Origin: a virus | Direction: 5' to 3' (one strand) | DNA length: 64,000 nucleotides | IMG/VR virus record: IMGVR_UViG_3300020229_000001 | Location: 1 to 64,000 of that record | Shown: positions 2,266 to 59,481 of the stretch, in pieces | Numbering within the stretch: position 1 is the stretch's first letter | Layout of the letters: every line of letters starts with the position of its first letter | Translations under genes and position numbers: made by a program | Notes under the pieces: generated by a model | Told to the model about the DNA's origin: nothing | Database searches by the model: none | The model's input: only the letters and a program-made list of their open reading frames with translations

Positions 2266-2267
2266 AC

Positions 2268-2753
2268 TTATTTCCCTTCAGTTTTTTCGGGTTGATGACT
2301 GCTCCCGAAATAAAACGAGACAATCATAGCCCAGGACGCCCCGAGGCTCCCTACGAGCATCTGTAGCTCGGCGTGGCCTTCCCACATTTTGAGGTCTCCG
2401 GTCATTAGCCCGATTAAGATACCAAAGAATCCTAAGGTGACAACGCCGGCTAAGATTGGGACTGTTTTGGCGCCGGTTTTTGCCTGCATATCCCTAGCGC
2501 TTTGCCGGTCTTCCATCTCGAGCTTTTGCACGTCGATATTCATCGCCTTCATCTTTAGTTGAAGGTCAGCGTCGGCAGCCTTTATGGCAGCCAATTGCTC
2601 CGCGGTTAACGTGTTCTTTTGAAGCGCATTTTTAATGGCTTCCGGCGTCTTTTCGCCGCCCAAAATATTTCCAATTGCTTCAACGGCGATCCCAGCCAGG
2701 GGAGACCCCAAAAGCGAAGCAACGGTCGGTGCAATTTTTTTAAGCCACTCCAT
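2268..2753 (-). CDS. Holin (3TM-type)
   Basis: N-terminal amphipathic IAPTVASLLGSPLAG, DRQSARDMQ motif, two C-terminal TM helices ending FYFGSS; adjacent to endolysin. Confidence 0.7.
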   Translation of the reverse strand: MEWLKKIAPTVASLLGSPLAGIAVEAIGNILGGEKTPEAIKNALQKNTLTAEQLAAIKAADADLQLKMKAMNIDVQKLEMEDRQSARDMQAKTGAKTVPILAGVVTLGFFGILIGLMTGDLKMWEGHAELQMLVGSLGASWAMIVSFYFGSSHQPEKTEGK

Positions 2754-3288
2754 TTTTAATTCCTTTCACCATGTCAGCAACGCGCACCAGCCAACCATCG
2801 AGATATTCCGCTGATTCCGGATTCTTTTTTGCAAGCATTTCGTAGAAATCCGCTTTCATTTTGCAGATTTTCAACGCGAGATCTTTTGCGCCAATATTTT
2901 CAGCGGCAGCCAGCACCGCTGCTTTTGTTTTTGGACCCATGACGCCGTCGTCGTGCGCCCCAACTGCGCGCTGTAAGAACTTTGTGACCTGGCCGTTTCC
3001 CATATTCACGCAGCCGTCAAAATAGACCGCATTAAGGGGAAACGGGAAGTCATCGCAGTGAGCGTCTTTCCATTCTTCTTGGTAGATCTCCGTGGCCTGT
3101 TCCAAGGTTAGCGTTTCGATGCAAACGCCAGGGTGAGAGCGGGCGTCAACCCCGTAGCGGGTTGTACCCCCTGGATCATTTTTGTCATGCTCTGTGGCAA
3201 CATATTGGTCGTCGCCCCAGTGCTTGGGTTGGTATTCCGTTTCGTGCTCCAATACAAATTTCAGAGCTTTGGCAAAGTCCTCGTTCAT
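2740..3288 (-). CDS. Endolysin, glycoside hydrolase family 108-like with PG-binding C-terminus
   Basis: EHE...DPGGTTRYGV, FDGCVNMG, LQRAVGAHDDGVMGPKT, GWLVR motifs; probable start MNEDF at 3288. Confidence 0.85.
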   Translation of the reverse strand: MNEDFAKALKFVLEHETEYQPKHWGDDQYVATEHDKNDPGGTTRYGVDARSHPGVCIETLTLEQATEIYQEEWKDAHCDDFPFPLNAVYFDGCVNMGNGQVTKFLQRAVGAHDDGVMGPKTKAAVLAAAENIGAKDLALKICKMKADFYEMLAKKNPESAEYLDGWLVRVADMVKGIKNGVA

Positions 3289-3300
3289 AAGCGGTGACTT

Positions 3301-3326
3301 GGCCGGCCCCATCTCTGGAGCCGGCC
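3301..3326 (-). terminator. Strong hairpin after capsid gene (no U-tract; terminator or mRNA stabiliser)
   Basis: GGCCGGCUCCA-GAGA-UGGGGCCGGCC just downstream of the capsid stop codon. Confidence 0.55.
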
Positions 3327-3343
3327 CGTGTCAACGTTCAGGA

Positions 3344-4549
3344 TTAGAGGCCTGTTGCGCAGGGCAGAGCGGCGCCATCAAACTGGCAGCGCTTGTACAG
3401 CACCGGCAATACGTTCTGCGGACGAATTGGCTGAATTGCACGGCTGATTTGGTAGATGTGCTGACCAAAATCGCCATACAAGTTACAGTCATTGTCACGG
3501 AAGTAAGTCCATTCCAGTTCGCCCATTGAGAGCTGCGGAGCAAACTTAAACGTGCCTTCCCCGGTGTACTGCTCGGGCACCAAACGCTTGAATGCGTCAC
3601 CAGCAATAATGAATCCTACCTCGTAAGGAGCAGCGACCCAAGCGGGGTTGCGGCGCTGCGCAAAACCAGTTGTGACCGCTGTCGAGACGATGGGGTTTAT
3701 CAAGACGAGGTTGCCACTGCCGTCAAGGCCGGTGGAGCGCAAAGGCTGCTGGTCGATCCCAAAGGCAAACCCGCGGTATCCCATGAACTGGTAGCCGGAG
3801 ATGCTTTCTTCGCCGAGCTTGAAGCTACCGGCGGAGAGATACAGCAAGTCTTCTTTGACGTCCTGGTCGTTCCGAATGGCTTCAATCGCGTCGGCGCCCA
3901 GCATGACTTGGAAAAACTCTCCTTCTTTTGAGGAGAACGGTTCAGCAAGCATTTCCTCGCGAAGGAACGTCCCAAGACGATACAATGTCTTGAAATTCAA
4001 ATGCGAGTCTGTCGTGTTGTTGGCGAACTTCGTGTTGATCTGCTGCATATCACCGGTCAAATTGTCGGTGAAAGAATGCAACGAGGAGCAGACGAATTTG
4101 ACGCCAGACTGGAGCAGGTACTGGTAACGAATATCAGCGTTAATGAGCTGAAGGATCGTCTTTTCAAGGGATACCTGGGCTTGAAGGTACGAGCCTTTGA
4201 ACGCAGTCCGAGCCTGCTTAACGCAGACCCGAGGGCCGGCGCCGCGAAGCGTCTGGAGGCTGAATTCATATTCGGTGGACCCAACAACGTCAGGAGTGGC
4301 GCCAACGCCGCAAAGCGAAAGATCGCTCACAAACGTAGGAGCTGCCAGAGAAGAGGCCGGAACCGCCATTTCCTCAACCACCGAGCGGACGACATCCGAA
4401 ACGGAAGGCAGGGTGCCACCATCAATCGAATTGATGTAAGGGCTTTTGCGGGCCAGAACTTTTGCGATCTGTCCGATGATGCGCTTCGTATCTTTGGAAG
4501 CGAAATTCTGAATCGTTGCAATTGGAATACAATCGTTTGAGGAGGGCAT
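3344..4549 (-). CDS. Major capsid protein (copy 1, complete)
   Basis: 401 aa, downstream of portal and scaffold, preceded by promoter/leader and followed by a hairpin; near-identical protein conserved at 63472..64000. Confidence 0.75.
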   Translation of the reverse strand: MPSSNDCIPIATIQNFASKDTKRIIGQIAKVLARKSPYINSIDGGTLPSVSDVVRSVVEEMAVPASSLAAPTFVSDLSLCGVGATPDVVGSTEYEFSLQTLRGAGPRVCVKQARTAFKGSYLQAQVSLEKTILQLINADIRYQYLLQSGVKFVCSSLHSFTDNLTGDMQQINTKFANNTTDSHLNFKTLYRLGTFLREEMLAEPFSSKEGEFFQVMLGADAIEAIRNDQDVKEDLLYLSAGSFKLGEESISGYQFMGYRGFAFGIDQQPLRSTGLDGSGNLVLINPIVSTAVTTGFAQRRNPAWVAAPYEVGFIIAGDAFKRLVPEQYTGEGTFKFAPQLSMGELEWTYFRDNDCNLYGDFGQHIYQISRAIQPIRPQNVLPVLYKRCQFDGAALPCATGL

Positions 4550-28357: not shown

Positions 28358-29059
28358 TTAAAAAAGTCTGTTTAGCCAGAGCGTCCTGGCTCCAATCGGG
28401 TCGATCAGAGGTTTTCCGAGGCGCTCGTTGACATTATTATGCAGACGCACCGACCAGTCAAACAGACGAGTGTAGTCCGGCGGGTCGGCAGCCAGGAAGG
28501 CTTCCAGGTGCGCTTTGCACGGGCACCCGTCAAACGGGAGGTCTCCCATCCAGTCCAGGAGCCAATGGTGCATATACCTAGGTTTCCCTTCGTGCCGGAG
28601 CGCGTACAGGTGCAGCTCCGCCCAAAACCTCGGGCCGGCCAGCATGATTTGGCTCTTCCGGCTTTCGCCGCGGTCGTAGATGCGCTCAACCTCGTTGCCG
28701 GCGTTGATGACCCATTGGTTATGGGCGTCCCAATCAGTTGAGAATGACATTGCGACCGTTTTCTCGGTCAACATGGCCGCCTGGTGTTGGATATGGTACG
28801 GCGCCTTGGGATCGTCGCCAGGCTCCTCGAGCTTGGGATGATCGGTGTCAAATTTGGTGACTTCCTCGTCGGTGATCCCGTCGCGCTTACAAAGCCATGC
28901 TTCGACAAGCTCATGCAGGGCCACCAGGAGGGCGCTTTGGTCCTGGCCGCCGTAGTCTGGCGCCGTAATCTTCAGCGCGCCGTCTGGGAGCCATTCCCAG
29001 TCGCCGGCTGTAGGATAACGCATGGCCGACGCGTCGATGGTCTTAATCTCAATCCTCAT
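28358..29059 (-). CDS. Fusion of a zincin/metal-binding-like domain and an Erv1/Alr-like sulfhydryl oxidase domain
   Basis: N-part RYPTAGDW...LHELVE...EPGDDP.APYH.QH; C-part FWAELH...LP.DGCPCKAH...FDWSVRLHNNVNERLGKP. Confidence 0.7.
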   Translation of the reverse strand: MRIEIKTIDASAMRYPTAGDWEWLPDGALKITAPDYGGQDQSALLVALHELVEAWLCKRDGITDEEVTKFDTDHPKLEEPGDDPKAPYHIQHQAAMLTEKTVAMSFSTDWDAHNQWVINAGNEVERIYDRGESRKSQIMLAGPRFWAELHLYALRHEGKPRYMHHWLLDWMGDLPFDGCPCKAHLEAFLAADPPDYTRLFDWSVRLHNNVNERLGKPLIDPIGARTLWLNRLF

Positions 29060-30591: not shown

Positions 30592-33500
30592 TTATTCTTC
30601 GTCTTCTCCTTCAGCTTCTTTTCGCAGTTTTTCTGCCGCTTTGATTGCTTTTTCTTTTTCCATCAATTGCTTCATTAGCCCCTTATTGGGAGACTTAACG
30701 CCAGTGAGGTTTGCCTCATCGGCCTCGGACAAGAGTCGCACTGTTTCCCCTTTACGATCCACTTGGAACAAACCTCCAGCTTGGATGATGTCCAAAGAAA
30801 ACTTGGCGGCGTCAGCGTAGTCCGCTGGCTCTGCTCCGCTCGTTGCCGCCCCGTACTTGCCAAACAATTCCTTCTCGTTAAACCACAGGGCAGCCTGCAT
30901 ATCGGCAATGGTAACAACAATCCCGGCTTGAGCAAGCCTAGCCTGAGCCTGCTCCATCGTTGTCTGCTGAAACGCCCGCTCGTTACTGGCCCGAGGTGCG
31001 CCAAGCGGCGTTGTGCGATCCTGCACCCAATTCTTGGCGGCTCTTCGTAATTCGGTTTTTCCCTTGAAGCTGCCAGTTCTGAATACTTTTTCAAGGTGCT
31101 CCGCAAACTCAAGCATCGCGCCGCTGTCTTCTAGTAATTTGTGGAATTCTTTTTTCGACCATCTGGGCGCGTCTTCTCCGTAAAGGTAGGGCTCTTCAAC
31201 TCCTTTTTTAATGAGCACTCGGTCGGTATATTCCTTGCCTTTTTTGAGCGCCTGATTTCTGTTGTATTCCTCAATCAACGAGTCTTGAAACCGCTCAAAT
31301 TGATGCCCTTCCTTGAGAGGATCATACTTAAATGAGCGACCAAGAATTCGATTCCACGTTCTGGTATACCAAAGGTCGGCGGTTAGCGTTGAGTAGTCGC
31401 CGTGGAGGTTATTAATGAAAGATCCGATCTTTGGCCCAAAGACCATAAACCCGGTCACCATTTGATTTTTGCCGCCCTCAACAGACAGCGGCTCCCCGTT
31501 GTAATACAGGGAGGTGTCTTGCTTCAGATTCTTGTTCCAATTTGCAACAGTGTCCGTTTTGAACAAAAGGGCTCGGAGCTGACTTGGGGTATGCCTTGTC
31601 AGCAACTCGTGCAATTTCAGTATGTTGTTTTCAATCGCGGCAGTTTTATCGCCGAATGTGCCATGCAGTGCGGTGACAATTTCTGGAAGGGTTTTGCCAT
31701 TTTCTAACATTAGCGTTACCCGAGTTGCCATTTTGCCATTCTCGAAGACGTCGTTGCCCTGAGACGCAATCCCGAGAACCGCATCGAAAACAAGGCTCTT
31801 GTCTGCGTCGTGCTGGGGAGACCCAACCTCGAGCCACGGAAAGAGTTGCGAGTACATTCCCTTCATCCGCTTCAGGGCCGCGTCGTACCATCCAATTGCG
31901 TTTGGAGACTTTGGATTCAGCGCGGCCCTCGCCATGTGCTGCTGAACCTCGTCGGCCACAACTGACGAAATGATATCCATCGCCCTCGGGCTATAGTCTC
32001 CGGGCAGGATTACCCCATCACTGGCCGCTCGATTCTGCAACGCATGAATCATGTCCGGGACGGCTGTCTCCCGCTTGCCTGCAAGCGTGTACGTTGACCT
32101 CACGGGCAGGATTTCGGTTCCTGCCAACAGCGGACTGGCGCTCCGGGCCATTGGGTCTACCGGGTACAGCTTGTCCTTTATGTACTTGGCGTCGGAGTCA
32201 CTGAGTCCGTACCGCTTGGCGTAGAGGGCTGGGTCGAAGATGTAGCCTTGCGCGGCTGCTGCCTTGGCGTAGTCGATAAGAAGGCTATCGATACTTCGTT
32301 GTAGTAAGGACTGTCCACCGGAAGTGGCTTGAAGCCAAACCGGGAGAACTCTCTGGTTGTCTCTTCCCTTGAATATTTTTTCAGTTTCATAAAGCTCTGA
32401 GGCTACAATTGTTTCGTATGATTGATCGATTGATGCTGATTTTTGGATTTCACTGAGCTTGCTGGCAAAGTCCTCGGTCCCAAAGTTGAGTGCCTTGATG
32501 CCCTTGCCGTCCGTTGTCGTAGAAACGTCTACGCCAACTTCTCTCGCTTTGTCAAAAGCCAACTTCAACTGGTCGTCGGTGAGCTTTGTAGAATGGATCA
32601 GGTATGCTGCCTGAGTGCCTTCTTTAAGGTCAATTGACGGCTTGTAGGTGATGCCAGCGTCTTGAGCAAAAGCAAGAGTTAGAAGCTGAGTGATTTGCTT
32701 TGCCTTGTCAAACGTAAGTTCAGGATGAACCAAATCAAAAGATGGTTCTACCTTCCCCTGCCACGTTCCTGCAATCGGCCTAATCTCCAGACCATCAAGG
32801 CCAAAGAAGTCTTTTAGTATCCCGTTGAAGCCATCGGATTTCAGAATGTCATGCACTGAGTCTCCAAGCTCTGCCATGCTGCGAATTCCAAGCGGATTGG
32901 CGGTGAATGGAGCAGGGGTTGCCTTTAGCGACACCTCTTCAAACGACCTGTTTAGCTTTTTGACTTGAGCTTTCCACGCGGCGTCTTCCGGGCTCATGTT
33001 CTGCATCTTTTCCGGGAACTGCGAGCGCATCTCTTCGATCTGGGTGTCGAGCGCGGCAACCTTTTCCGCATAGGCGGCCTTCTTTGCTTCAAATTCCGCC
33101 GTTTTTTCAGGCTTCTTTGCGTTCTTAGCCGCCTCGTCTGCCTTGGCAAGCAACTCAAGTTGGCGTTGTTTTTTAAGCTGCAATTCGCCCCATGTTTCAA
33201 CTGCTGCCTTTTGGCCGGAAACCGTTTTAAGCTGATCTCTTAGCTCGGATGCCGTTCTGTAGGTGTAACCGTGCTCACCGGGCTTGGCTCCAATCACAAC
33301 GCTGAACATCCCGCGTTCATCAGTGATGGTTTTGGGAAGCGGAGCAATTGACGCAAGAGCAGGCAGACGCTCTTCCTCTTTTGGCTCTATTTTTATGCCT
33401 TCCAGCGCCCCGGGAATATTTTCGTTGTCCGGCATAAACCGCACCTGAGCACCTTCAAGGGCTCCCGAGGCGCTGGGGTCGGTTAGGAATGGTTTAATTT

Positions 33501-36500
33501 CGTCGTATTTTTCACGACTGATGGAGCCATTCACCATTTTAGTAAACAGCTTTCGATTAAACGCCTTGATGTCATTGGCATCCGATGCATTTGCATAACG
33601 CATTGGCACATCGATGACAAAAATGGCCTCCTTTCCATCGGGGCCAAGCCCCGAAACCACATTTCCTTCGTGGGCATCTCGCAAAAATGTTTTTGCCTTT
33701 GGATTGTAGAATTCAAAAAGATTGCCTCTTACTATCCTGAAAAAGTTTCTTTGATTTAAATATGAATCAATTTGGTTAATTGATAACGGGTCTAAAATTT
33801 TGACGTAAGGCTGCTCCGTGACAACATACGCACCGGGATCAGATCCCGTTACCCTTCCAGTAACAAGGTCTGAAAAATTTCCCTGAACATTGGCTTCCGA
33901 TTCCTTTGCTTGATCGTGGATTCCCTTAACGGTGATTTTTGTTTCAGGGAAAAACTCATTGTGCAGTCGAATTCGGTCGAAATAATCACCCCAGTTTTCT
34001 TCAAACATGGGAATATTTGTCCGCTTTTCAACTTTGCCATTTTCATTTCCAAGAATGACTTGATGCTCGGCCCCTGATTTATACCCCGACGCCCTCCACC
34101 TCTCGAGAAAGTCCCGATGATCCAAAAGCGCCCCGTGCTGGCGTGCTGCATCAACTAGACGGGTGTCTTGCGCTCGCTTTGCTGCCTCTGACGCACGGCG
34201 ACTTTCAGTTTCTCCTCGAACCTGTTCTGATTCTGAATCCTTTCCTCTAACGGAACGCTCGAAAACACTTCCGAGATTCTCACTAGGTGCTCTCGACCCT
34301 TGTTTGTTTTGGCTGCTTCCTGCTCTACTAACCTCTCCCTCTCTGCTCTGTCTGGAATTAAGTATTCGTTCATATTCTTCTTTTTCGGCAAAATCGCCAG
34401 ATTCTTTAGGATTACCATCAGGCATAAATCGAGCCTGACCGCCTTCCACAGAGGAGCGCATCTCGGGAGTAATGGCGACTTTCCAGATTTTGGGATTTTC
34501 TCCAATCTCTACAACTTCTCCACCTTCTCCGCGTCCCCGGTTGTTAAGCGCAACAACTGCGTGAGAACGGTTGGTGAACGTCATTGTTGGAGCGATATTT
34601 GGATTTCCTTGAATGACGTACTCTTTCTTGCCTTCAACCTCACCCGTTTCAACTTTAGCACCCCATTGCTTGACGTACTTGCCAATTTCATTTGGTAGGA
34701 TTTTGTCGTAAAAGCCTGTCATGCCTTCGCCGCCAATATCAAGGTCTAATCCGTCAGCTTTTGCGTATGCCGTAACCGGATCTGATTGAGAATTGAGGTC
34801 AGCAATAAGCTTTTCTGCAAGTGGCTTCCCTATTGTGTCAGCTACCTCCTGAGCAGACAGTCCGGGTTTATTTATTACTGATACAGGAAGGTTTGATCCA
34901 TCTGTGTTTTGGTATGCACTGACATGATACTTTCCGTCACCGTCATTTATTAGGTCAATGGCTGAGACATGTTTACTTAGGGAATACCGATCAGCTTGCG
35001 CTTCTCCTCCGGTCCAGCCAATCCAATTCTTGCCGTCAGCAACAGCTTTTTGAAGTGCGTGCTTGAATAGTTGAATGGGCCAATCTTTGCGGAATGGTGC
35101 GTCGGCAACGCCGTCTTGACGCATTGCTCCTGCGTTCATTAAGGCTGTCCATTCCTTGCGCTCTTCAGGTGTTGCCGCTTGCCCTTTTGCTTCAATTTCA
35201 CGCACCCTATTATAATCGCGAAGTTGTTCATTTTTGTACCCTCTTTTCCTAGCCGCCTGATGCAGATCAGATTGCAACTCTTCAATCAGCCTGCCAGTTC
35301 CAAAGTCTTGAGTGCGCATATGCGCAACATAGTTTGGAACGTCTGGAAAGTGGCTTGAGCGAAACTCTCCAACTCCAACAACATCGCTTTCTCCCCTGCC
35401 ATCAATTCTGGCTTGATCTAATGTGTCATAAGTGCCTTGTTCTCCATCAATAAATTCAACATCAAAAGATCCATCGTTTAATTTTTTAAATGAAGCAATT
35501 GGGTCAATTTCTGTTTTAGACGGCATTCTAAGAACAACCTCTTCGTAGTTTGTGCCGCCGGGAAGCTTGTATTTGGAGTATTGCGTCTCGTCTTCTCCGT
35601 ACTCAGAATCGATTTGGTTGGTCTCAGAAACGAACTCTTCCGCTTCTGGTCTACTCATCCCAAACATTTCCATTGCAGATTTCTCTGCTTCCTCAATTGT
35701 GTTAAATTTTGCAGCGCCTCCCCACTCTTCAGCTTCAGAGTAGAACTCGCCTTCAAAGGACTTTGCTTCTCGCATCCTCTGCGTCTCAAACTTTGCAACG
35801 TAACCGTCTTTCAAGAACTGCTTAACGTCATCTTTCGTGACATATCCTTTCTCCGCCTGCGCTGCGTCAATAAACTGATTGATGCCGCTCCATTTCATTT
35901 CGTCAGGCTTCACGCCACTACCCTTCTGCGGGTCCAGAATGCCCCTTATTTGCTCCGCACTGGCCCGATTAGGCATCTTGTTTAATAGAACCCGTCCAGC
36001 CTTGCTGTAGAACCCGGGGGCGACCTTTGTAGGGTCTTCCTCACGCTCTGGCATGAAGCGAATGCCTGACGGGATTTTGCTAGATGCCCACATGCTCCCG
36101 CCTTGCGGATCTGGTCTGCCAGTTTCCGTATCAAATAATTTTTCTCTTCGTAATGTAGCCTGTTTTGATATTGGCTCTCCGTATAGTTTTGTTGCACCAA
36201 TGCTTTGAGCATATTTTGCAATTTCTCGGTACAAAGCTTCTCCGTATCCTTGTTTTTCAAACCCGGAAGAATTGGCAGACAGCACCACCTTCAGGAGCTC
36301 TGGGTCATACGGATCTCTAGTGACAGTTGCGCTAGCCGCAACCTTGTTAGACATTTCCGGGTAAATGTAAATGTGCGTGTCTGGGTCTTCTTCAATTTCC
36401 TCAACTCTAGATTTGTATTTTGGCAACCTTGCCTTCATTACGTTCAGCTCTTCTTGAGTTGGTACGCGACGGTATTCATCTTCCAATTTCTCAGGTATAA

Positions 36501-39500
36501 ACCGGACCTGCGCTTCTGCTGGCTGAACCGTTGCCTTGATTTCACCAGTGCCTTTTGGGTCGTACTTAGCAGAGACTGATCCCAAACCTTTTAGGATACT
36601 ACCACCGAGCGCAGGACGCTGTTCTTCTTTAGCCTCCTGTTCGGGCATAAACCGGGCCTTGTACGGGATCGGGTACTTATACTCCGTGTTTGCGTTCTCT
36701 TCGGCAGCAGTGTGCGAATCAAGGCGGAATGATTTGATGATCTGGTCAAAGCTAGACTGTTTATCGAGCTTGCGTTCGGATCGGCTAAACTTGTTCCGGT
36801 CTAGGTCTGGAATAGACTCAACGTCGGGCACATTTGGATTTGGTGCGCCGAGCATCTTTTCGTAAATGGTTCGCTTGAGCTTTGCAACATTTGGGTCTGC
36901 ATCGAGTCCCTGCCAGCCCGGGACACTTGCGTCGGGGTTCGCAAGGTTCGGAAGCAGCACCGTTCTAAACTCGTTCCAAAATTTTTGTGTGTCGCCGCCC
37001 CAAGGCTCAAACACTCCCTTGGCATATTTCTCATAAAGCCCAACCTTCCTACGAAGGTCGCTAATATCCCAAGCAGTTGTGTAAAAATTGCCAGCCTTTG
37101 AGAGGTGCAATTGCAATGGGACGATCTGCCGAATCTTTGGAGAAAACGCCTGATAGTTGCCTTTGTCATTCAACCGGGAGGCGTAATCGATATCAAGCAC
37201 CGTCCCGTCGCCCCGAGTCATTAGGTCGTCGTACTTAAACAACAGTTCCTTCATTGAGGCTGGAACAATACTTTCAGGAAGTGCAGCAATTGCCGCACGC
37301 TGCGCTGGAGTCATTTTTCCAGTGTAGTGCAGGTCTTCATCATCTTTTCCCTGCCCGCCTTTGATCGCCCGGAACCGTCCCAGCTCAGATGGATCTCCAG
37401 CGTTATCGATGGCATCACGGACCATTTGCACCCGGCGCTTAATATGCGCTACGGTTTCCTTGTTTTTGCGTTCTTTTGGCTTCCCGGTGGCCTCGTCGTA
37501 AGCAATCTGACGTTCTACTTGTACTCGCCCACCGACCGGGACTTCGAGTCCAACTAATTCAGGATGTAATTCTCCAAATCCCCGTTCCTTGTTTGGAACA
37601 TTATCCCCAGTCGTATCGTCTTGGTGATAAATCCAACTACCTTCAGATGCGTTGTTGTCAGTTAGGTTAACCGTCTGCACTACCTTACCATCTGCGTCCG
37701 TAACTACAGCCACTGGAATCGTCTCAAATTTCCCTGTGTCCTTAAAATACTTGTTAAGCAACTCTTTTGAGTTTTTTACGTCTTTTGGCGTAATGGGCGC
37801 AGCCACCGCTTCTCCCGGCTCTGCGTCAGTAAAGTCGCCGTCGTACTTCTTCATCTCCCGCTCGACGTTGCGTATCGCACGCATTACCTCAGGGCTGTAC
37901 GTTGCGCCAACAAGCCCAGAAGTCCACTGTTTGTACACCGCTGGCCCTGCAATTGCGTACAAGTGATTCAACGCAGATTTGACGTTGTTGCTACTGACAC
38001 GAGAAGCCAACCAGTTAATTCCTCGCTGCGCTGGAGACTCTGGGTCGCCAAAGAACCTTCCTGCGTGAGCTTCTGCGAGAGTTTCCTCCCGCATCAATTC
38101 AACAATCTTGTTCTTGTTAAAGTCGTTTGCCGCTTCATCCCAAACTCCAGCGGCTTCAGCGTAATCCTGAACTTGTTCTGCTGTCTTTCCTTCTAAATAT
38201 TTTTTGTAAAATTTGCCAAACAGATCATCCCGGGACATTCCGGGCTCCGCAGGAGTGATTTGTCGCACATTGCCATTTTCATCAACAGCCTCTGTGCCGA
38301 ATATTTTGTTGAACAAAGGTGCGATCCGCTTGCGGTATTCGTCCTTGCCAAACAAGCCGTGCCCAACAACTTCGTGAGCAAGGACGTTTGAGATAGCCTC
38401 CCCAGAAAGCTCTGCCTTTTTTAAAGCGTTTTCAACATTCACAAACACCGTATCTTTGGCAGGGTCCATCGTAAACCCGTCCTTGGCGGTGCCTTTCCCA
38501 ATCATAATGCCGTCAGCGGTTGGATTCTTTTCTAACGCCTGCTCAATAGTCATTGGTGCTCCAACCCCATTGAAATTAGGGTTTTCCGTAATCATCTTGT
38601 CGATAATTTGGCTAGATGTAAGCAACTCAATGTTCATGTTGCTGTTAGGAGTCAGCACCCCGTTTATGAGGTTTGACACTTTCCCTAGCGACAATTTAAT
38701 GCCATCCTCGAACGCTTGCCGGGCTTCCGGGGGCGCAACTATGTTTTCCTGATGGAGTCGATAAGCAAACTCGTAATCTGCTTTGGCCTTAGCCGCTTCA
38801 GGTGTATTTGCCCCGTTCACCATTTCGGCAAAATGCGTTTTCTGAGCCCGATCAAGGCGTTTTTCAGACTGCTTGATGACCTTGTCCCAGTTCAAATTTG
38901 TGACATTTTCTCGAGATTCTGGGCTTAACCCAAGCATAACCCTTTGAGCCTGTCGCATCTCTGCGTCTCGGTTCATTTTGTTGCGAATCGGATCATTCCC
39001 TACTAATCCTCCGAGAACCTGCCCGTGAATAAATCCATAGGTCGCAAACTCAGCCCACATTTGTGCAAACTCTTGAGCGTCCTTGTCTTCAAGTACTCCC
39101 ATTGCAACCATCATTGGCAGCATTGACACGTTGTGTTGCACAAAGACGTTTGCGTTTTTTTCAATAAAATCCAACGCTTTGCCGCCACCAGCTTTTTGCG
39201 ACCAGTTCAAAAATCGTTGCACCTCAGGAGATGCTGATTCCATTTTTTCTAACGCCTCAAAGCGGCCCAATTCAGCGCCGGATAACCTTCCAGCTTTAAG
39301 TAGCTGCTGCCCAAGGCGAGGCGCAGCCGCAATCGCCTTACCAGCAAGCTGAATTCCAAGCCCAGTTCCTGCGCCTTTTAACGCCCCGGCCAGCGGATCA
39401 TCAGACGCCAATGCACCAGCGCCAGCGCCAAGTAGAGTCGACCCGGCATATTTTACAGGTTTTGGAAGGCTTTCAAAGGCTGTTTTAGACCGATCAATGG

Positions 39501-40998
39501 TGTCTGCAATGTTGCCAAGTGGCTTTTCGAGCCACCCGGGCTGCTCTCGGGCAATTGCCTCCGCTTCACGCTGCGCTTGCAGTGCCGCGCTATCAGCGGC
39601 GTACATAACATTGCGAGCCTCACCAGTCTTTCCAGCCGCTCTCAACCCTCGACCTATTTGCTGACCTAACATGCTCAAATCTCGCACAACTGCCCCGCCC
39701 AACCCAAACACGTTTAATGGCGATGTCATGGCAATTGCGCCAACTTGTTCAGGGTCTTCCCGTAGACGATTGGCTTCTTTTATTTGAGCTTGCACCCCAG
39801 TTTCAGCGGCTGCTTCTGCTTGCAATCGACGGTTAGCCCTCGCTGCTTCAATATTGCCTCCAAATCCAAAAACAGCGTCTTCTGCTGGGGGCATCAACTT
39901 TTCAACAACATCAACCCAGTATTTTTTAACGGCAGGATCTTGCCACAGGTCATCAATTGTTCTGGCCAAAACAGCGGGATTTTTTTCCCTCTGCATGTGG
40001 TCGATATACTTTGCATTCATCCGAGTTGCAAAGTTCTTCCTAGCTTGATCCATTGCTGGAGCAGCCGCAGCTTCACGCAATGCAGCTTCTTGCTCCATAG
40101 AGATGGCAGGAGCAATTGATGGGTCTGCTAGAGTCCCTTCCGCAGTGGCTTTAGCAATGCCAACCTTAGCCTTGTCCCAAAGCATAGCTCTACCTTCAGA
40201 AAAATCCTTTGTTGCCTTTAAAAGGTCTTCTCTAGCCATCAAAAGGGCATCGCCAAACACCCGAGCGGACCGATACGTTTTGTCTCGGAGCGACAATTCA
40301 GCGTCTCGGATTTGCTGTTCGTTTAGTCCCTTTTTTTGCTCTTCAGTGAGCGTTTTGCCTTTCCCGAAATCTTCAGGGCTACCGACATACACTGCGCCTG
40401 TAAGAGCATCCTTTGCTAGCCTGCCAGCGCCAGCAGCAAGAGGAGGCAAAGACGCCAACATTCCAACCCCGGCCTTCCCTGCGTCTGCAATTAAATCAAA
40501 CGCACTTGTATCCTTGTTCCACCTGTAATCGAACAGAGACTGCAACTGCACAGGGTTTTCGGCCATGTTGTACCAAGGAACTGTCTTGTGTAGCTCCTCA
40601 AGGTCGTGCGGGTCGGTGATTCCTTTGAACACCGTTTCCGTAATCCCCTTGCGGGTGTTAGGATCAGTGATTCCAGCGTATGCATTAAACTTGCCTGTTG
40701 GGCCAACCGGGACTGGGGCAAACTGCCCAGAGCCGAGTGCTCCGCTGCCAATCAACGAAGACTGTTCTGGAGGCGCAGTGCTGCCGACCATTTCGGGACG
40801 AAACATCTCGCCGCCACCAGACAGCGTGCCACCAGAAGTCTGCATTCCGGGGGATTCCCCCTTGAATGCAGCTAGAATTTCTTCATCAGAAATGCCTTTT
40901 GCCTCTTCCTTGCTGTAAATAGGCTGACTGACAGATGGCTGTTCTCCCTTAAACGCAGCCAGAATTTCTTCGTCTGAAATCTTTGGAGTTTCAGCCAT
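30592..40998 (-). CDS. Giant polyvalent ejection protein (zincin, GNAT, kinase and HhH-like domains)
   Basis: 3468 aa after the internal virion genes; LAHEVVGH...EE zincin; FEKQGYGEALY GNAT; SGAEHQV..LHNEFFP..QPYV..DAHEGNV..VID kinase; GWY..GPKIGSF.NNL.GD...T.DLW..R..QAALW domain. Confidence 0.85.
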   Translation of the reverse strand: MAETPKISDEEILAAFKGEQPSVSQPIYSKEEAKGISDEEILAAFKGESPGMQTSGGTLSGGGEMFRPEMVGSTAPPEQSSLIGSGALGSGQFAPVPVGPTGKFNAYAGITDPNTRKGITETVFKGITDPHDLEELHKTVPWYNMAENPVQLQSLFDYRWNKDTSAFDLIADAGKAGVGMLASLPPLAAGAGRLAKDALTGAVYVGSPEDFGKGKTLTEEQKKGLNEQQIRDAELSLRDKTYRSARVFGDALLMAREDLLKATKDFSEGRAMLWDKAKVGIAKATAEGTLADPSIAPAISMEQEAALREAAAAPAMDQARKNFATRMNAKYIDHMQREKNPAVLARTIDDLWQDPAVKKYWVDVVEKLMPPAEDAVFGFGGNIEAARANRRLQAEAAAETGVQAQIKEANRLREDPEQVGAIAMTSPLNVFGLGGAVVRDLSMLGQQIGRGLRAAGKTGEARNVMYAADSAALQAQREAEAIAREQPGWLEKPLGNIADTIDRSKTAFESLPKPVKYAGSTLLGAGAGALASDDPLAGALKGAGTGLGIQLAGKAIAAAPRLGQQLLKAGRLSGAELGRFEALEKMESASPEVQRFLNWSQKAGGGKALDFIEKNANVFVQHNVSMLPMMVAMGVLEDKDAQEFAQMWAEFATYGFIHGQVLGGLVGNDPIRNKMNRDAEMRQAQRVMLGLSPESRENVTNLNWDKVIKQSEKRLDRAQKTHFAEMVNGANTPEAAKAKADYEFAYRLHQENIVAPPEARQAFEDGIKLSLGKVSNLINGVLTPNSNMNIELLTSSQIIDKMITENPNFNGVGAPMTIEQALEKNPTADGIMIGKGTAKDGFTMDPAKDTVFVNVENALKKAELSGEAISNVLAHEVVGHGLFGKDEYRKRIAPLFNKIFGTEAVDENGNVRQITPAEPGMSRDDLFGKFYKKYLEGKTAEQVQDYAEAAGVWDEAANDFNKNKIVELMREETLAEAHAGRFFGDPESPAQRGINWLASRVSSNNVKSALNHLYAIAGPAVYKQWTSGLVGATYSPEVMRAIRNVEREMKKYDGDFTDAEPGEAVAAPITPKDVKNSKELLNKYFKDTGKFETIPVAVVTDADGKVVQTVNLTDNNASEGSWIYHQDDTTGDNVPNKERGFGELHPELVGLEVPVGGRVQVERQIAYDEATGKPKERKNKETVAHIKRRVQMVRDAIDNAGDPSELGRFRAIKGGQGKDDEDLHYTGKMTPAQRAAIAALPESIVPASMKELLFKYDDLMTRGDGTVLDIDYASRLNDKGNYQAFSPKIRQIVPLQLHLSKAGNFYTTAWDISDLRRKVGLYEKYAKGVFEPWGGDTQKFWNEFRTVLLPNLANPDASVPGWQGLDADPNVAKLKRTIYEKMLGAPNPNVPDVESIPDLDRNKFSRSERKLDKQSSFDQIIKSFRLDSHTAAEENANTEYKYPIPYKARFMPEQEAKEEQRPALGGSILKGLGSVSAKYDPKGTGEIKATVQPAEAQVRFIPEKLEDEYRRVPTQEELNVMKARLPKYKSRVEEIEEDPDTHIYIYPEMSNKVAASATVTRDPYDPELLKVVLSANSSGFEKQGYGEALYREIAKYAQSIGATKLYGEPISKQATLRREKLFDTETGRPDPQGGSMWASSKIPSGIRFMPEREEDPTKVAPGFYSKAGRVLLNKMPNRASAEQIRGILDPQKGSGVKPDEMKWSGINQFIDAAQAEKGYVTKDDVKQFLKDGYVAKFETQRMREAKSFEGEFYSEAEEWGGAAKFNTIEEAEKSAMEMFGMSRPEAEEFVSETNQIDSEYGEDETQYSKYKLPGGTNYEEVVLRMPSKTEIDPIASFKKLNDGSFDVEFIDGEQGTYDTLDQARIDGRGESDVVGVGEFRSSHFPDVPNYVAHMRTQDFGTGRLIEELQSDLHQAARKRGYKNEQLRDYNRVREIEAKGQAATPEERKEWTALMNAGAMRQDGVADAPFRKDWPIQLFKHALQKAVADGKNWIGWTGGEAQADRYSLSKHVSAIDLINDGDGKYHVSAYQNTDGSNLPVSVINKPGLSAQEVADTIGKPLAEKLIADLNSQSDPVTAYAKADGLDLDIGGEGMTGFYDKILPNEIGKYVKQWGAKVETGEVEGKKEYVIQGNPNIAPTMTFTNRSHAVVALNNRGRGEGGEVVEIGENPKIWKVAITPEMRSSVEGGQARFMPDGNPKESGDFAEKEEYERILNSRQSREGEVSRAGSSQNKQGSRAPSENLGSVFERSVRGKDSESEQVRGETESRRASEAAKRAQDTRLVDAARQHGALLDHRDFLERWRASGYKSGAEHQVILGNENGKVEKRTNIPMFEENWGDYFDRIRLHNEFFPETKITVKGIHDQAKESEANVQGNFSDLVTGRVTGSDPGAYVVTEQPYVKILDPLSINQIDSYLNQRNFFRIVRGNLFEFYNPKAKTFLRDAHEGNVVSGLGPDGKEAIFVIDVPMRYANASDANDIKAFNRKLFTKMVNGSISREKYDEIKPFLTDPSASGALEGAQVRFMPDNENIPGALEGIKIEPKEEERLPALASIAPLPKTITDERGMFSVVIGAKPGEHGYTYRTASELRDQLKTVSGQKAAVETWGELQLKKQRQLELLAKADEAAKNAKKPEKTAEFEAKKAAYAEKVAALDTQIEEMRSQFPEKMQNMSPEDAAWKAQVKKLNRSFEEVSLKATPAPFTANPLGIRSMAELGDSVHDILKSDGFNGILKDFFGLDGLEIRPIAGTWQGKVEPSFDLVHPELTFDKAKQITQLLTLAFAQDAGITYKPSIDLKEGTQAAYLIHSTKLTDDQLKLAFDKAREVGVDVSTTTDGKGIKALNFGTEDFASKLSEIQKSASIDQSYETIVASELYETEKIFKGRDNQRVLPVWLQATSGGQSLLQRSIDSLLIDYAKAAAAQGYIFDPALYAKRYGLSDSDAKYIKDKLYPVDPMARSASPLLAGTEILPVRSTYTLAGKRETAVPDMIHALQNRAASDGVILPGDYSPRAMDIISSVVADEVQQHMARAALNPKSPNAIGWYDAALKRMKGMYSQLFPWLEVGSPQHDADKSLVFDAVLGIASQGNDVFENGKMATRVTLMLENGKTLPEIVTALHGTFGDKTAAIENNILKLHELLTRHTPSQLRALLFKTDTVANWNKNLKQDTSLYYNGEPLSVEGGKNQMVTGFMVFGPKIGSFINNLHGDYSTLTADLWYTRTWNRILGRSFKYDPLKEGHQFERFQDSLIEEYNRNQALKKGKEYTDRVLIKKGVEEPYLYGEDAPRWSKKEFHKLLEDSGAMLEFAEHLEKVFRTGSFKGKTELRRAAKNWVQDRTTPLGAPRASNERAFQQTTMEQAQARLAQAGIVVTIADMQAALWFNEKELFGKYGAATSGAEPADYADAAKFSLDIIQAGGLFQVDRKGETVRLLSEADEANLTGVKSPNKGLMKQLMEKEKAIKAAEKLRKEAEGEDEE

Positions 40999-43075: not shown

Positions 43076-43588
43076 CTAAGAGCCCCCAAAGGAGATTTGA
43101 CCTAAATTCGGGACTTGAAATTGTTTCACCTCGGGCGGGGTTGCCGTCATTTGGTTTGCCGCCCGGGCAGCTTGTGGGCCTTGAGACACTTGAGCTGCTT
43201 GCGGTGACATTCTTGGCGATTGGGTTGTAGCAGCGGGGGAAACGGGCGCTGCTGCCGCTCCGGGTGCTTTAAGCACGCTCGCGTTGGTTATGCCCTGAGG
43301 GGCAGAATATGCCGTTGGCTGCTGCACTGCTGGTGTTACTGAAGCGGAAGTAGAAGGTGATGCAGATGGCGCTGGAAGCCCTTGTGCAGGCTCTGTCTTT
43401 ACTGGGTGAGCATCTCCATACGCTTTGGTGAAATCACCGTAGCTCTGTCCTTTTGCGGGGGGAGGAGCGTCAGAGTGAGCCGCAGCAAACTCACGATTTT
43501 TTGTAAAATCCGAGCCAAAAGTAGCATTTAAAAAGTTGGTTCCACCTATTTTTTCAATAAAGTCAGGGTTTTTAAATTTTCCGCCCAT
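43076..43588 (-). CDS. Low-complexity virion protein with FGG-X C-terminal tag
   Basis: Starts MGG; ends FQVPNLGQISFGGS. Confidence 0.65.
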   Translation of the reverse strand: MGGKFKNPDFIEKIGGTNFLNATFGSDFTKNREFAAAHSDAPPPAKGQSYGDFTKAYGDAHPVKTEPAQGLPAPSASPSTSASVTPAVQQPTAYSAPQGITNASVLKAPGAAAAPVSPAATTQSPRMSPQAAQVSQGPQAARAANQMTATPPEVKQFQVPNLGQISFGGS

Positions 43589-43590
43589 AA

Positions 43591-44148
43591 TTAAGATCCT
43601 CCAAAGGTTAAGCCCGAAATGCTCGGGAGACGAAAGTTGCTCTGCTCTTGCGCTTGTTGTGTAAGAAAAGCTCCACCGCCACCCGGCTTATTATAAACTG
43701 GAGCATTTTTTACTGCTTTTGTCATGGAAGTTGGTGCGCTAAAATTAGTTGGCGACCCATCGCTCGTAGACATTGGTCCCACAGCTTGCATTGGTCCCAC
43801 AGCTTGACTAGCTGTTGTATCTGGAGCAGTTGCCGTAACTGGTCCGCCAAGGGTAGCCTGCCCAACAATGTTTGGATGCTGAATGTCATAAAGTTTTTTT
43901 GCCTGAACGTCAGAGGCTGCTTTTGCTTGAGCATCCGCATTAGCTGCGGCCAAGCTATTTGCCTTCATTAAGTTAAGCCCTACGCCCGCAGAAACAAGTC
44001 CAATTGGCCCCATGAACGGGGCAGTGGCAACCAGTACTGGAGCAAGTTCTTTTGGAACCGCTTTAGTAAATTCTTTTGGAACAGCCTTGGCTATTTCATT
44101 GGGAATCATTTTTGCAACGGCACGAAATCCAGATGACAACCAGCTCAT
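43591..44148 (-). CDS. Low-complexity virion protein with FGG-X C-terminal tag
   Basis: Ends FRLPSISGLTFGGS. Confidence 0.65.
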   Translation of the reverse strand: MSWLSSGFRAVAKMIPNEIAKAVPKEFTKAVPKELAPVLVATAPFMGPIGLVSAGVGLNLMKANSLAAANADAQAKAASDVQAKKLYDIQHPNIVGQATLGGPVTATAPDTTASQAVGPMQAVGPMSTSDGSPTNFSAPTSMTKAVKNAPVYNKPGGGGAFLTQQAQEQSNFRLPSISGLTFGGS

Positions 44149-44149
44149 A

Positions 44150-44632
44150 TTATATTCCTCCAAAAGTTACTCCAGTCGTGCGGGGCATCTGGAATTGTGA
44201 TTGCTTAGAATTGGGCATAGCTGGGTTTACTGGGCTCAAGTTGCTTCCAGCAAGATTGGCCGCAGTCCGGGGTAGATAGTATGCCGCTGCGCTTAAATTA
44301 GATAGCTTGGCTTGATTTAAGGCATTAACGTCAATTGCGCCACCAGTAATGGCGGACCCAGCCATTCCCGCCTGAGCTGCCGCCGCCTGTGAGGCAGTAG
44401 AATCTTTTGCCTTCTGATAAGCCTGCGCTCGAAGGAGGCTTTGTTGCGCCTGAGAATTACTCTGGTTCATGCCTAGCTGCGCTGCGTTATTTTGAGCGTC
44501 AATCATGGCTCTGCGCTGGGCTTCCGCTGCATCCTGCGCTGCTGCCCCCTGTTGTTGGCGCATCAATTCAATCTGCGCGATCATCGGAGTGTAATCAGGA
44601 GGTGGTGGTGCTGAGTAATGTGATCCGCCCAT
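44150..44632 (-). CDS. Low-complexity virion protein with FGG-X C-terminal tag
   Basis: MGGS..APPPPDY start typical of ejection proteins; ends FQMPRTTGVTFGGI. Confidence 0.7.
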   Translation of the reverse strand: MGGSHYSAPPPPDYTPMIAQIELMRQQQGAAAQDAAEAQRRAMIDAQNNAAQLGMNQSNSQAQQSLLRAQAYQKAKDSTASQAAAAQAGMAGSAITGGAIDVNALNQAKLSNLSAAAYYLPRTAANLAGSNLSPVNPAMPNSKQSQFQMPRTTGVTFGGI

Positions 44633-58558: not shown

Positions 58559-58727
58559 TGGTCTTTTCCTTGCGAACGACGTTAATGACGCCCATTAGCG
58601 CCAACCCGGCAGAAATGATGGACTCCGCGAGGTCTGGGCGTAACTTAACTCCGAGACCAGTGATTAGAGAGATGACTCCACGCCAAGTGGATGGCTCGTT
58701 AAGTCGTTCAGTGATGTATTGAATCAT
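58521..58727 (-). CDS. Holin-like two-TM protein
   Basis: RL.EPSTW.G motif, two TM segments, basic tail. Confidence 0.7.
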   Translation of the reverse strand: MIQYITERLNEPSTWRGVISLITGLGVKLRPDLAESIISAGLALMGVINVVRKEKTNATAAPVDPKVS

Positions 58728-59245
58728 ACAATTATGGTTTTTTTGAGGTCAGAAACTCGGTTTAGCCATCCGTTTTTGGCGTAGTTATATTCAGGCTTTG
58801 CCTTGCAAAGCGCAACGTAGAACTGTTCTTTCTTTTGGCAGTATGCTAATGCCACCTCTGTGGGCGTTTTGAGCGTGCAGGCCGTAATTGCAGCTCCAAT
58901 GGTAGCAGGACCAATGATGCCGTCATCTTTGGCTCCTACGGTGCGTTGGAGCAGTAAAACACCTTGATGCACCCCGGAATTAACGCAGGCGTCAAAATAT
59001 GCAAGCGACAATGGCCAAGGTAGCTTGTCGGCCTTGCAGTCGAGCCATTCCTGCCAGTAAATTGCGGTCGCCATCTCCTCGTTGAGGTTTTCCACGTCCA
59101 CCCCCTTATGGCTACGGGCATCAATCCCGTATTTCGTGAGGCCACCCGGGTCCCGGGGGTCATGCTCACTGAGCACCTTGCCACGAGACATCACGTTCTC
59201 GTGTTCAAAGATGAACTTCATGGCATTTTTAAAATCATTTGTCAT
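58724..59245 (-). CDS. Endolysin, GH108-like (copy 2)
   Basis: EHE...DPRDPGGLTKYGI, FDACVNSG, LQRTVG..DDGIIGP.T, GWLNR. Confidence 0.85.
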   Translation of the reverse strand: MTNDFKNAMKFIFEHENVMSRGKVLSEHDPRDPGGLTKYGIDARSHKGVDVENLNEEMATAIYWQEWLDCKADKLPWPLSLAYFDACVNSGVHQGVLLLQRTVGAKDDGIIGPATIGAAITACTLKTPTEVALAYCQKKEQFYVALCKAKPEYNYAKNGWLNRVSDLKKTIIV

Positions 59246-59481
59246 TGTGCGCTCCTTCCAAGAACTTTTGCCCATAACTCTTTGCGGTCTCGCTCGCACT
59301 CAAGAATTGCTTCTTTAAGGTCGTTAATTTGATCGCCGAGAGCCTTCATATGCTGATTTCGCTCTTCGTTTAGCCTTGTGATTAACCCTTTATTCATTTG
59401 CTGGATAAAGCCAATCGCGACGCAGGCCATTAAAAACGGAAGCCCTTGGTTTTTTGACGCTTCTATGAGTAATTCGTTCAT
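59242..59481 (-). CDS. Single-TM coiled-coil protein (holin/antiholin-like)
   Basis: TM segment then coiled coil with ECERDR..LW; directly upstream of endolysin. Confidence 0.55.
   Translation of the reverse strand: MNELLIEASKNQGLPFLMACVAIGFIQQMNKGLITRLNEERNQHMKALGDQINDLKEAILECERDRKELWAKVLGRSAQ

Follow-up and report, generated by a model that had tools for sequence, protein, structure and literature searches.

Why should one short peptide, RF[MI]P[ED], recur five times along a single giant phage protein? We addressed this question in the first 64 kb (64,000 nucleotides; hereafter the window) of the 94,385-bp IMG/VR virus record IMGVR_UViG_3300020229_000001, which derives from an uncultured lake phage and carries on its minus strand a giant open reading frame (ORF) of 3468 amino acids (aa). 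We propose that the five copies represent one junction peptide, that it stands at each joint of the array of exchangeable effector cassettes within the middle third of a polyvalent protein, and that it is cut by a protease. That the motif is the junction peptide of exchangeable cassettes we consider very probable; the proposal as a whole, cutting included, stands in our estimation at about an even chance.

With its Kinase-PolyVal and GNAT matches, the giant protein belongs to the phage polyvalent proteins as defined by Iyer et al. (2017; PMC5512222). Its signature PolyVal domain, Kinase-PolyVal (PF18762), scored 60 bits against a Pfam cut-off of 27 (E = 3.6e-16), and the same ORF combines this kinase with a GNAT domain, a zincin-like region, and a domain of 538 aa that we call domain A. 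Searches of the giant protein against NCBIfam and PHROGs returned no match. All five motifs were located in this ORF at the positions that a sequence-only reading of the window had given (Table 1), with codons that differ between copies, as it had noted (CGG, CGC, or CGA for Arg; TTT or TTC for Phe; CCC, CCT, CCA, or CCG for Pro). From composition alone, 0.003 copies are expected rather than five, and two or more copies arose in none of 20,000 shuffles; a chance origin was therefore rejected. The same reading had taken the motifs to bracket the GNAT domain, domain A, the kinase, and the C-terminal region, and the joints indeed fit the module borders obtained from Pfam, clustering, and AlphaFold2 (AF2) models.

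Comparison with 97 related proteins (1,900–6,000 aa, from uncultured contigs of ~60 kb) showed that this arrangement is shared. In about 33 of them RF.P occurs three to eight times, and clustering of the pieces that it delimits yields a conserved N-terminal core (N-core; ~1,450 aa), two to seven cassettes that vary in order and number, and one of several C-terminal domains. The cassette types include domain A, GNAT, ART-PolyVal, PBECR5, and DUF7178, among others. The motif is found at junctions only: at least 290 aa follow the last copy in 31 of 33 proteins, and it never lies at or near the N-terminus. Within aa 1300–2700 of the giant protein, 142 of the 282 BLAST block ends lay no more than 10 aa from a motif (null expectation 7.5%; the ends are not independent, as the relatives share ancestry), and 50 alignment ends fell within aa 2190–2199, at junction peptide 4. 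At their C-terminal ends, the blocks stop 1–4 aa into the motif and the next block resumes 13–16 aa later, which points to a variable linker after the motif. Residues downstream of the motif are enriched 1.9-fold in Glu and depleted of Trp, Ile, and Asn. In an AF2 model of aa 1630–2215 (29-row alignment; predicted local distance difference test score (pLDDT) 75.6), the folded core of domain A comprises model residues 34–557, and motifs 3 and 4 lie outside it in tails of pLDDT below 50, motif 4 beginning five residues past the last helix. As modelled, the motif thus lies in a disordered, acidic linker.

Recently exchanged cassettes place their borders at the motif. This protein and relative P0002 share a kinase cassette at 93% identity, with the identity extending from the R-F-M-P-D of motif 4 to the R-F-M of motif 5 and both flanks unrelated. 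The GNAT cassette is 88% identical to that of relative P0003 between its two motifs, and lies after domain A in P0003 and before it here. Among all motif-rich proteins, 46 of 70 ends of recent exchanges (blocks at least 85% identical, with dissimilar flanks) were within 15 aa of a motif. Metagenome contigs resolve the breakpoints to ~10–25 nucleotides (nt). One contig from a lake metagenome matches window positions 33452–34409 at 98% nucleotide identity, the similarity ceasing 8 nt from motif 4 and 11 nt from motif 5; in further lake-water metagenome contigs, GNAT follows directly on the end of domain A, which is the P0003 order; and still other lake-water contigs match the C-terminal region only, up to ~33330. 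Searches of metagenome-contig and viral-contig collections gave no match for the kinase cassette. Because homology blocks end at the motifs, identity boundaries fall inside the motif, and metagenome contigs form mosaics, these comparisons support the view that module swaps between phages occur exactly at the junction peptide. The sequence-only reading had offered a self-processing polyprotein and/or cassette exchange at RFMP; the exchange part is borne out by the block ends and by the boundaries of the two near-identical cassettes. The joints may be caused by DNA micro-homology of 5–11 nt, or selection may simply retain those that restore the peptide.

The way in which the peptide is conserved suggests that it is read as protein. 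In 19 motif copies from four genomes, the wobble positions of the Phe and Pro codons vary much as they do gene-wide, and this free variation argues for selection at the level of the peptide. Other lineages carry other peptides at their joints. Relative P0006, which is 72% identical over aa 1963–3460 (where the domain A–kinase–C-terminal arrangement is common to both) and only ~24–30% identical in the N-core, has [KR]FAGE[PR] at three joints whose orthologues here carry RFMP. Further lineages have variants of their own, namely [FYW]MAE in P0024, DIRFQLSED (three times) in P0059, RYSQFG (four times) in P0051, xFMPG (nine times) in P0167, and L[FN]QSER (six times) in P0132, and additional lineages have RFSLEE, LFSLGE, L.AAPL, or LFSAPAQ at all joints. 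Among 92 further giants with domain A, the five residues after its GQ-x tail recur at least three times in 31, more often than in any of 60 shuffles. Since the peptide is uniform within a protein and different between lineages, a shared reader of it is implied. In nearly every one of 73 aligned relatives, distant ones included, domain A itself ends in ITPEMR..V..GQ[PA][LR]F, and because this conserved GQ[PA][LR]F tail resembles the motif, the junction peptide may have spread from it to the other joints.

Two other sequences resemble the motif. ART-PolyVal cassettes (relatives P0002–P0029) end in a doublet, LSERFNP-x4-DIRFMP, and even distant giants with a different junction peptide retain its LS[EQ]RFNP half; because of this retention, LS[EQ]RFNP seems to belong to the ART-PolyVal domain itself and not to the joint. 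The name "PLxRFG domain" attached to relative P0093 denotes an unrelated C-terminal domain of ~700 aa (NF032893), and was set aside as distinct from the RFMP motif.

In the mechanism that we favour, the peptide would be a protease recognition site at which separate enzymes are cut from the chain, either while it is in the filled head or once it has been ejected. In-frame recombination would join unrelated cassettes at the peptide, because it is the only sequence common to them, and would thereby keep each new cassette cleavable. Whether some protease cuts at the junction peptide we regard as evenly poised. That the effectors are released after injection would be pure inference. A candidate cutter is encoded in the same chain: as the sequence-only reading had pointed out, an HExxxH...E site lies upstream of the cassettes (HEVVGH with E972), and its residues H875, E876, H880, and E972 do not vary among 26 diverged relatives, to which the N-core is 22–88% identical over aa 700–1150 (alignment A1). 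An AF2 model of the zincin region (pLDDT 68) contains strands or a small sheet, then the HExxxH helix, and later a helix with E972. The match list of a VIA structure search with this model was filled by its N-terminal helices, and a complex prediction of the zincin region (aa 700–1024, with alignment), the linker (aa 1628–1668), and Zn gave a score of 0.00, which speaks neither for nor against. That this conserved zincin of the N-core is the cutter, acting in cis, strikes us as possible but doubtful; that the cutter is encoded elsewhere, by phage or host, we consider rather unlikely. Zincins usually prefer a bulky hydrophobic residue at P1', owing to a hydrophobic S1' pocket. Given this preference, and since the motif is most widely conserved at its aromatic residue, a cut before that residue would be the most natural guess.

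Several observations weigh against cutting at the peptide, and against the zincin as its agent. No cut has been observed in the giant protein, and blastn and tblastn against 50,697 phage records found no cultured relative, giving only remote domain-level matches (e.g. MW202675). The zincin region (aa 767–1000) has no Pfam match at E ≤ 10, a PDB sequence search with it returned nothing, and Foldseek with the zincin model gave weak YbeY-like rows (probability 0.3–0.4) and no clear peptidase match. Eight giants of 4,400–6,200 aa have clear junction peptides and no HExxH, and giants with HExx(x)H do not have a recurring junction peptide significantly more often than others (odds ratio 1.4, p = 0.38); a zincin acting in cis is therefore not the general reader. 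At least six zincin subtypes accompany RF.P, and in recombinants (P0010 and P0025, for example) one core type is united with cassettes of another lineage. The motif is in no other ORF of the window, where even the relaxed pattern [RK][FYW][MILVSA]P[EDAS] matches only the giant ORF and one unrelated KYLPA. Some motifs come in pairs separated by 9–50 aa without any domain, an arrangement for which cutting offers no obvious need. Finally, neither Pfam nor PHROGs recognised a prohead protease in the scanned ORFs, many of which have no match at all. The self-processing part of the earlier suggestion is plausible and in keeping with a published prediction. That prediction is of autoproteolytic release of polyvalent domains by zincins, HExxxH forms included, and cassette-like recombination is raised there as well (Iyer et al., 2017; PMC5512222).

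The same motif could serve without being cut. It would then be a docking tag, a short linear motif to which a host protein or some part of the virion (portal, inner capsid surface, or ejection channel) binds, and its repeats would help to load, hold, or thread a long bead-on-string chain. Its being short, exposed, repeated, and lineage-specific would suit any co-evolving reader, its presence in giants that lack HExxH raises no difficulty here, and the tandem copies would increase avidity; three small virion proteins of the same phage, moreover, bear a different common C-terminal tag. A tag carried by each module should, however, also end the last one, yet the motif is confined to junctions, no partner is known, and no other ORF of this phage contains it. 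We judge docking to be unlikely. A reading that dispenses with any partner makes the motif a passive structural element, such as a cap or stop at the end of a domain or a pause in translation or folding, with neither reader nor cut. It would fit the position of the motif directly after the last helix of domain A, and the related GQ[PA][LR]F tail means that the motif may have begun as a domain-intrinsic tail. But modules of unrelated fold (N-core, GNAT, kinase, and ART) all end in this one peptide, which is predicted to be disordered rather than packed; concerted, lineage-specific change would be unexpected of a generic cap, and the ribosome is too conserved to explain the variants. This makes a passive element, in our view, quite improbable.

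The boundaries of the recently exchanged cassettes would also be expected if the peptide had no function and DNA micro-homology alone (CGN TTY ATG CCN) guided in-frame cassette exchange. Nine of these 12 bases are fixed, as Met has one codon and Phe two, and Arg is CGN in 19 of 19 copies versus 76% gene-wide, a weak hint because the copies are related. The varying wobble positions of Phe and Pro, however, leave merely 5–11 nt of unbroken identity between copies, and the amino acids are still kept in relatives of 25–30% identity. The joints of a lineage switch to another peptide together, as a set, which points to a protein reader and not to DNA, and selection for evolvability alone would be weak. 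We hold micro-homology as the sole explanation to be very unlikely. If, as we propose, the peptide is instead a processed junction, the principle may be general: polyvalent proteins as a whole might use a "junction peptide code", in which a lineage-specific peptide of 4–6 residues stands at every joint and co-evolves with the protease that reads it. The peptide would then be processing site and in-frame splice point at once, and any cassette bearing the peptide of the lineage could be plugged in and would be released on delivery. We put this forward tentatively, at somewhat less than an even chance.

The modules that the junction peptides delimit are listed in Table 1. The weak GNAT call of the giant protein is confirmed by the homologous module of relative P0008, which matches GNAT in Pfam with E = 3.8e-8. 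Domain A is the commonest module of these giants, with 8,710 cluster representatives at E ≤ 0.001 and 1,759 at E ≤ 1e-30; it matched no Pfam family, and Foldseek gave no significant match for its model. In a VIA structure search, all 50 of the 50 matches listed were GNAT-fold proteins or GNAT domains (Z 7.5–9.2), and on this basis domain A may be a GNAT-like enzyme with large insertions in its core. Its invariant residues (alignment A3) include K68, E71, Y189, E191, S252, H254, H264, R266, E278, Q280, D282, and D469. Between junction peptide 4 and the kinase core lies an 80-aa segment rich in Ser, Arg, Glu, and Gln (aa 2195–2273; window 34180–34416, minus strand), which is probably disordered; it has a very low G+C content at third codon positions (0.28) and moves together with the kinase cassette in P0002. 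The C-terminal region, which the sequence-only reading had labelled HhH-like, has no Pfam match, and that of relative P0018 is 95% identical to it from aa 2548 on. The kinase segment had been described as more AT-rich than its flanks, which is true but not special to the kinase: all three cassettes have a G+C content of 0.445–0.471, compared with 0.50 in the N-core and 0.51 in the C-terminal region.

Table 1. Modules and junction peptides of the giant protein, in order along the chain (positions are those of the window).
Feature	Residues (aa)	Window position	Strand	Remarks
Giant ORF	1-3468	30592..40998	-	3468 aa, ~380 kDa; ORF listing and translation, Kinase-PolyVal Pfam match
N-terminal core	1-1448	36655..40998	-	Cluster B, 24 proteins; Gly/Ala-rich segments and zincin-like region; kept in relatives
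HEVVGH (HExxxH motif)	875-880	38359..38376	-	Partner Glu972 at 38083-38085
Junction peptide 1, ARFMPE	1449-1453 (RFMPE)	36640..36654	-	End of N-core; YKARF[ML]PEQ kept at the same joint in relatives
Spacer	45 aa	36505..36639	-	No recognisable domain; cluster K, 50-52 aa, four proteins
Junction peptide 2, VRFIPE	1499-1503 (RFIPE)	36490..36504	-	Left identity boundary of the GNAT cassette common with P0003
GNAT acetyltransferase cassette	1504-1646	36061..36489	-	Pfam Acetyltransf_1, E 0.016 (aa 1528-1606)
Junction peptide 3, IRFMPE	1647-1651 (RFMPE)	36046..36060	-	AF2 model residues 18-22, within stretch 3-31 of pLDDT <50
Domain A	1652-2189 (538 aa)	34432..36045	-	AF2 pLDDT 75.6; no Pfam family; commonest module of these giants
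Junction peptide 4, ARFMPD	2190-2194 (RFMPD)	34417..34431	-	AF2 model residues 561-565, within low-confidence stretch 560-580
Kinase cassette	2195-2519	33442..34416	-	80-aa linker and Kinase-PolyVal (aa 2274-2464, window 33607-34179), PF18762, E 3.6e-16
Junction peptide 5, VRFMPD	2520-2524 (RFMPD)	33427..33441	-	Right identity boundary of the kinase cassette common with P0002
C-terminal region	2525-3468 (944 aa)	30595..33426	-	Cluster L, 931-945 aa; no junction peptide inside or at end

The giant protein is probably virion-borne and packed into the particle. Its gene ends the structural block and is preceded by tail-fibre genes, an endolysin gene, the gene of a 1352-aa virion protein, and an internal-virion-protein-like gene (phrog_511, E = 6e-5). 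The common C-terminal tag mentioned above belongs to three small, otherwise dissimilar proteins encoded just upstream of the giant gene (window 43076–44632, minus strand), which end in F-[QR]-[VLM]-P-x4-[IL/V]-[ST]-F-G-G-[SI]-stop; its register differs from that of RFMP, and it may sort virion proteins as a signal in its own right. At its N-terminus, the giant protein contains a direct repeat of ~13 aa, ISDEEILAAFKGE, twice, 29 aa apart (aa 7–48; window 40855–40980, minus strand). The last 422 aa of the giant ORF are repeated 62,523 bp further along the record at 97% amino-acid identity (window 30595–31860; record 93118–94383), so that the 94-kb record is probably a genome of ~62.5 kb assembled ~1.5 times; the sequence of the doubled part suggests two strains as its sources. 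Two genes downstream of the giant gene, a 233-aa protein (window 28358–29059, minus strand) contains an Erv1/Alr sulfhydryl-oxidase domain (Pfam E = 4.4e-8, above cut-off), which is unusual for a tailed phage. The ~62-kb genome also has two endolysin-like genes with GH108 and PG_binding_3 domains (window 2740–3312 and 58724–59299, both minus strand), which are only ~42% identical to each other (84 of 200 aligned positions).

In design, the closest functional analogue of the giant protein is found in the MARTX toxins of Vibrio. These are very large delivered chains with a conserved delivery part and an effector array exchanged by recombination, in which an internal protease cuts the linkers after delivery. 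The protease is a cysteine protease domain, which is switched on by inositol hexakisphosphate of the host and cleaves after Leu, and the toxins are type I secreted. The likeness, which lies in the exchanged effector array and the putative internal protease, is one of analogy only, without homology: the candidate cutter here is a zincin and the carrier a phage particle, and the whole-protein Pfam scan, in which no search was aimed at such a domain, listed no MARTX-type cysteine protease domain. Prohead processing offers a second comparison. The prohead protease gp21 of T4 cuts at L/I-x-E and gp175 of phiKZ at S/A/G-x-E, and their sites also occur in capsid, scaffold, and other head proteins. 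Here too a short consensus would be read many times in a probably capsid-internal, later ejected protein, and one targeting part could load many cargoes if the chain were cut inside the head; unlike those sites, RF[MI]P[ED] is in no other ORF, and no site in a head protein was found. Short motifs also separate constant from variable parts and serve cassette exchange in CdiA (VENN), Rhs (PxxxxDPxGL, which is also a self-cleavage site), and the tail-fibre genes of T-even phages (boxes). In these systems, a short motif likewise divides constant from variable parts at the place of exchange, but one motif per protein precedes a single variable tip, whereas in the giant protein the motif stands at every joint and its consensus varies between lineages.

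The nearest known relatives remain the polyvalent proteins themselves, which share with the giant protein a multi-effector phage chain of great size, Kinase-PolyVal, and a zincin-like HExxxH, and with its relatives ART-PolyVal, PBECR5, and GNAT; they differ in that the zincin region here is unrecognised by Pfam (Iyer et al., 2017; PMC5512222). A conserved peptide at the joints, lineage variants of it, or mapped exchange breakpoints were found neither by term searches of that paper nor in the literature searched. What is new is that the breakpoints can be placed at the motif itself and that the motif may have originated in the tail of domain A. A 61-kb phage from spring water (MW202675.1, 6773–15435) carries domain A and other polyvalent-type modules as separate genes directly after the portal gene, a split array without a junction peptide.

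The junction peptide names the exact bonds to look for by N-terminomics and the residues to mutate. If the junction code holds true, it could allow chosen cargo to be loaded into, and released from, engineered phage particles. It also provides a simple rule for parsing thousands of unannotated giants, given the size of the domain A family alone, and it explains how cassettes would move between phages with both the reading frame and the mechanism of release left intact. Polyvalent proteins are regarded as the earliest weapons that a phage delivers, and how a chain of 380 kDa becomes many enzymes, and how such an arsenal is renewed, are questions to which the junction peptide may give a handle.

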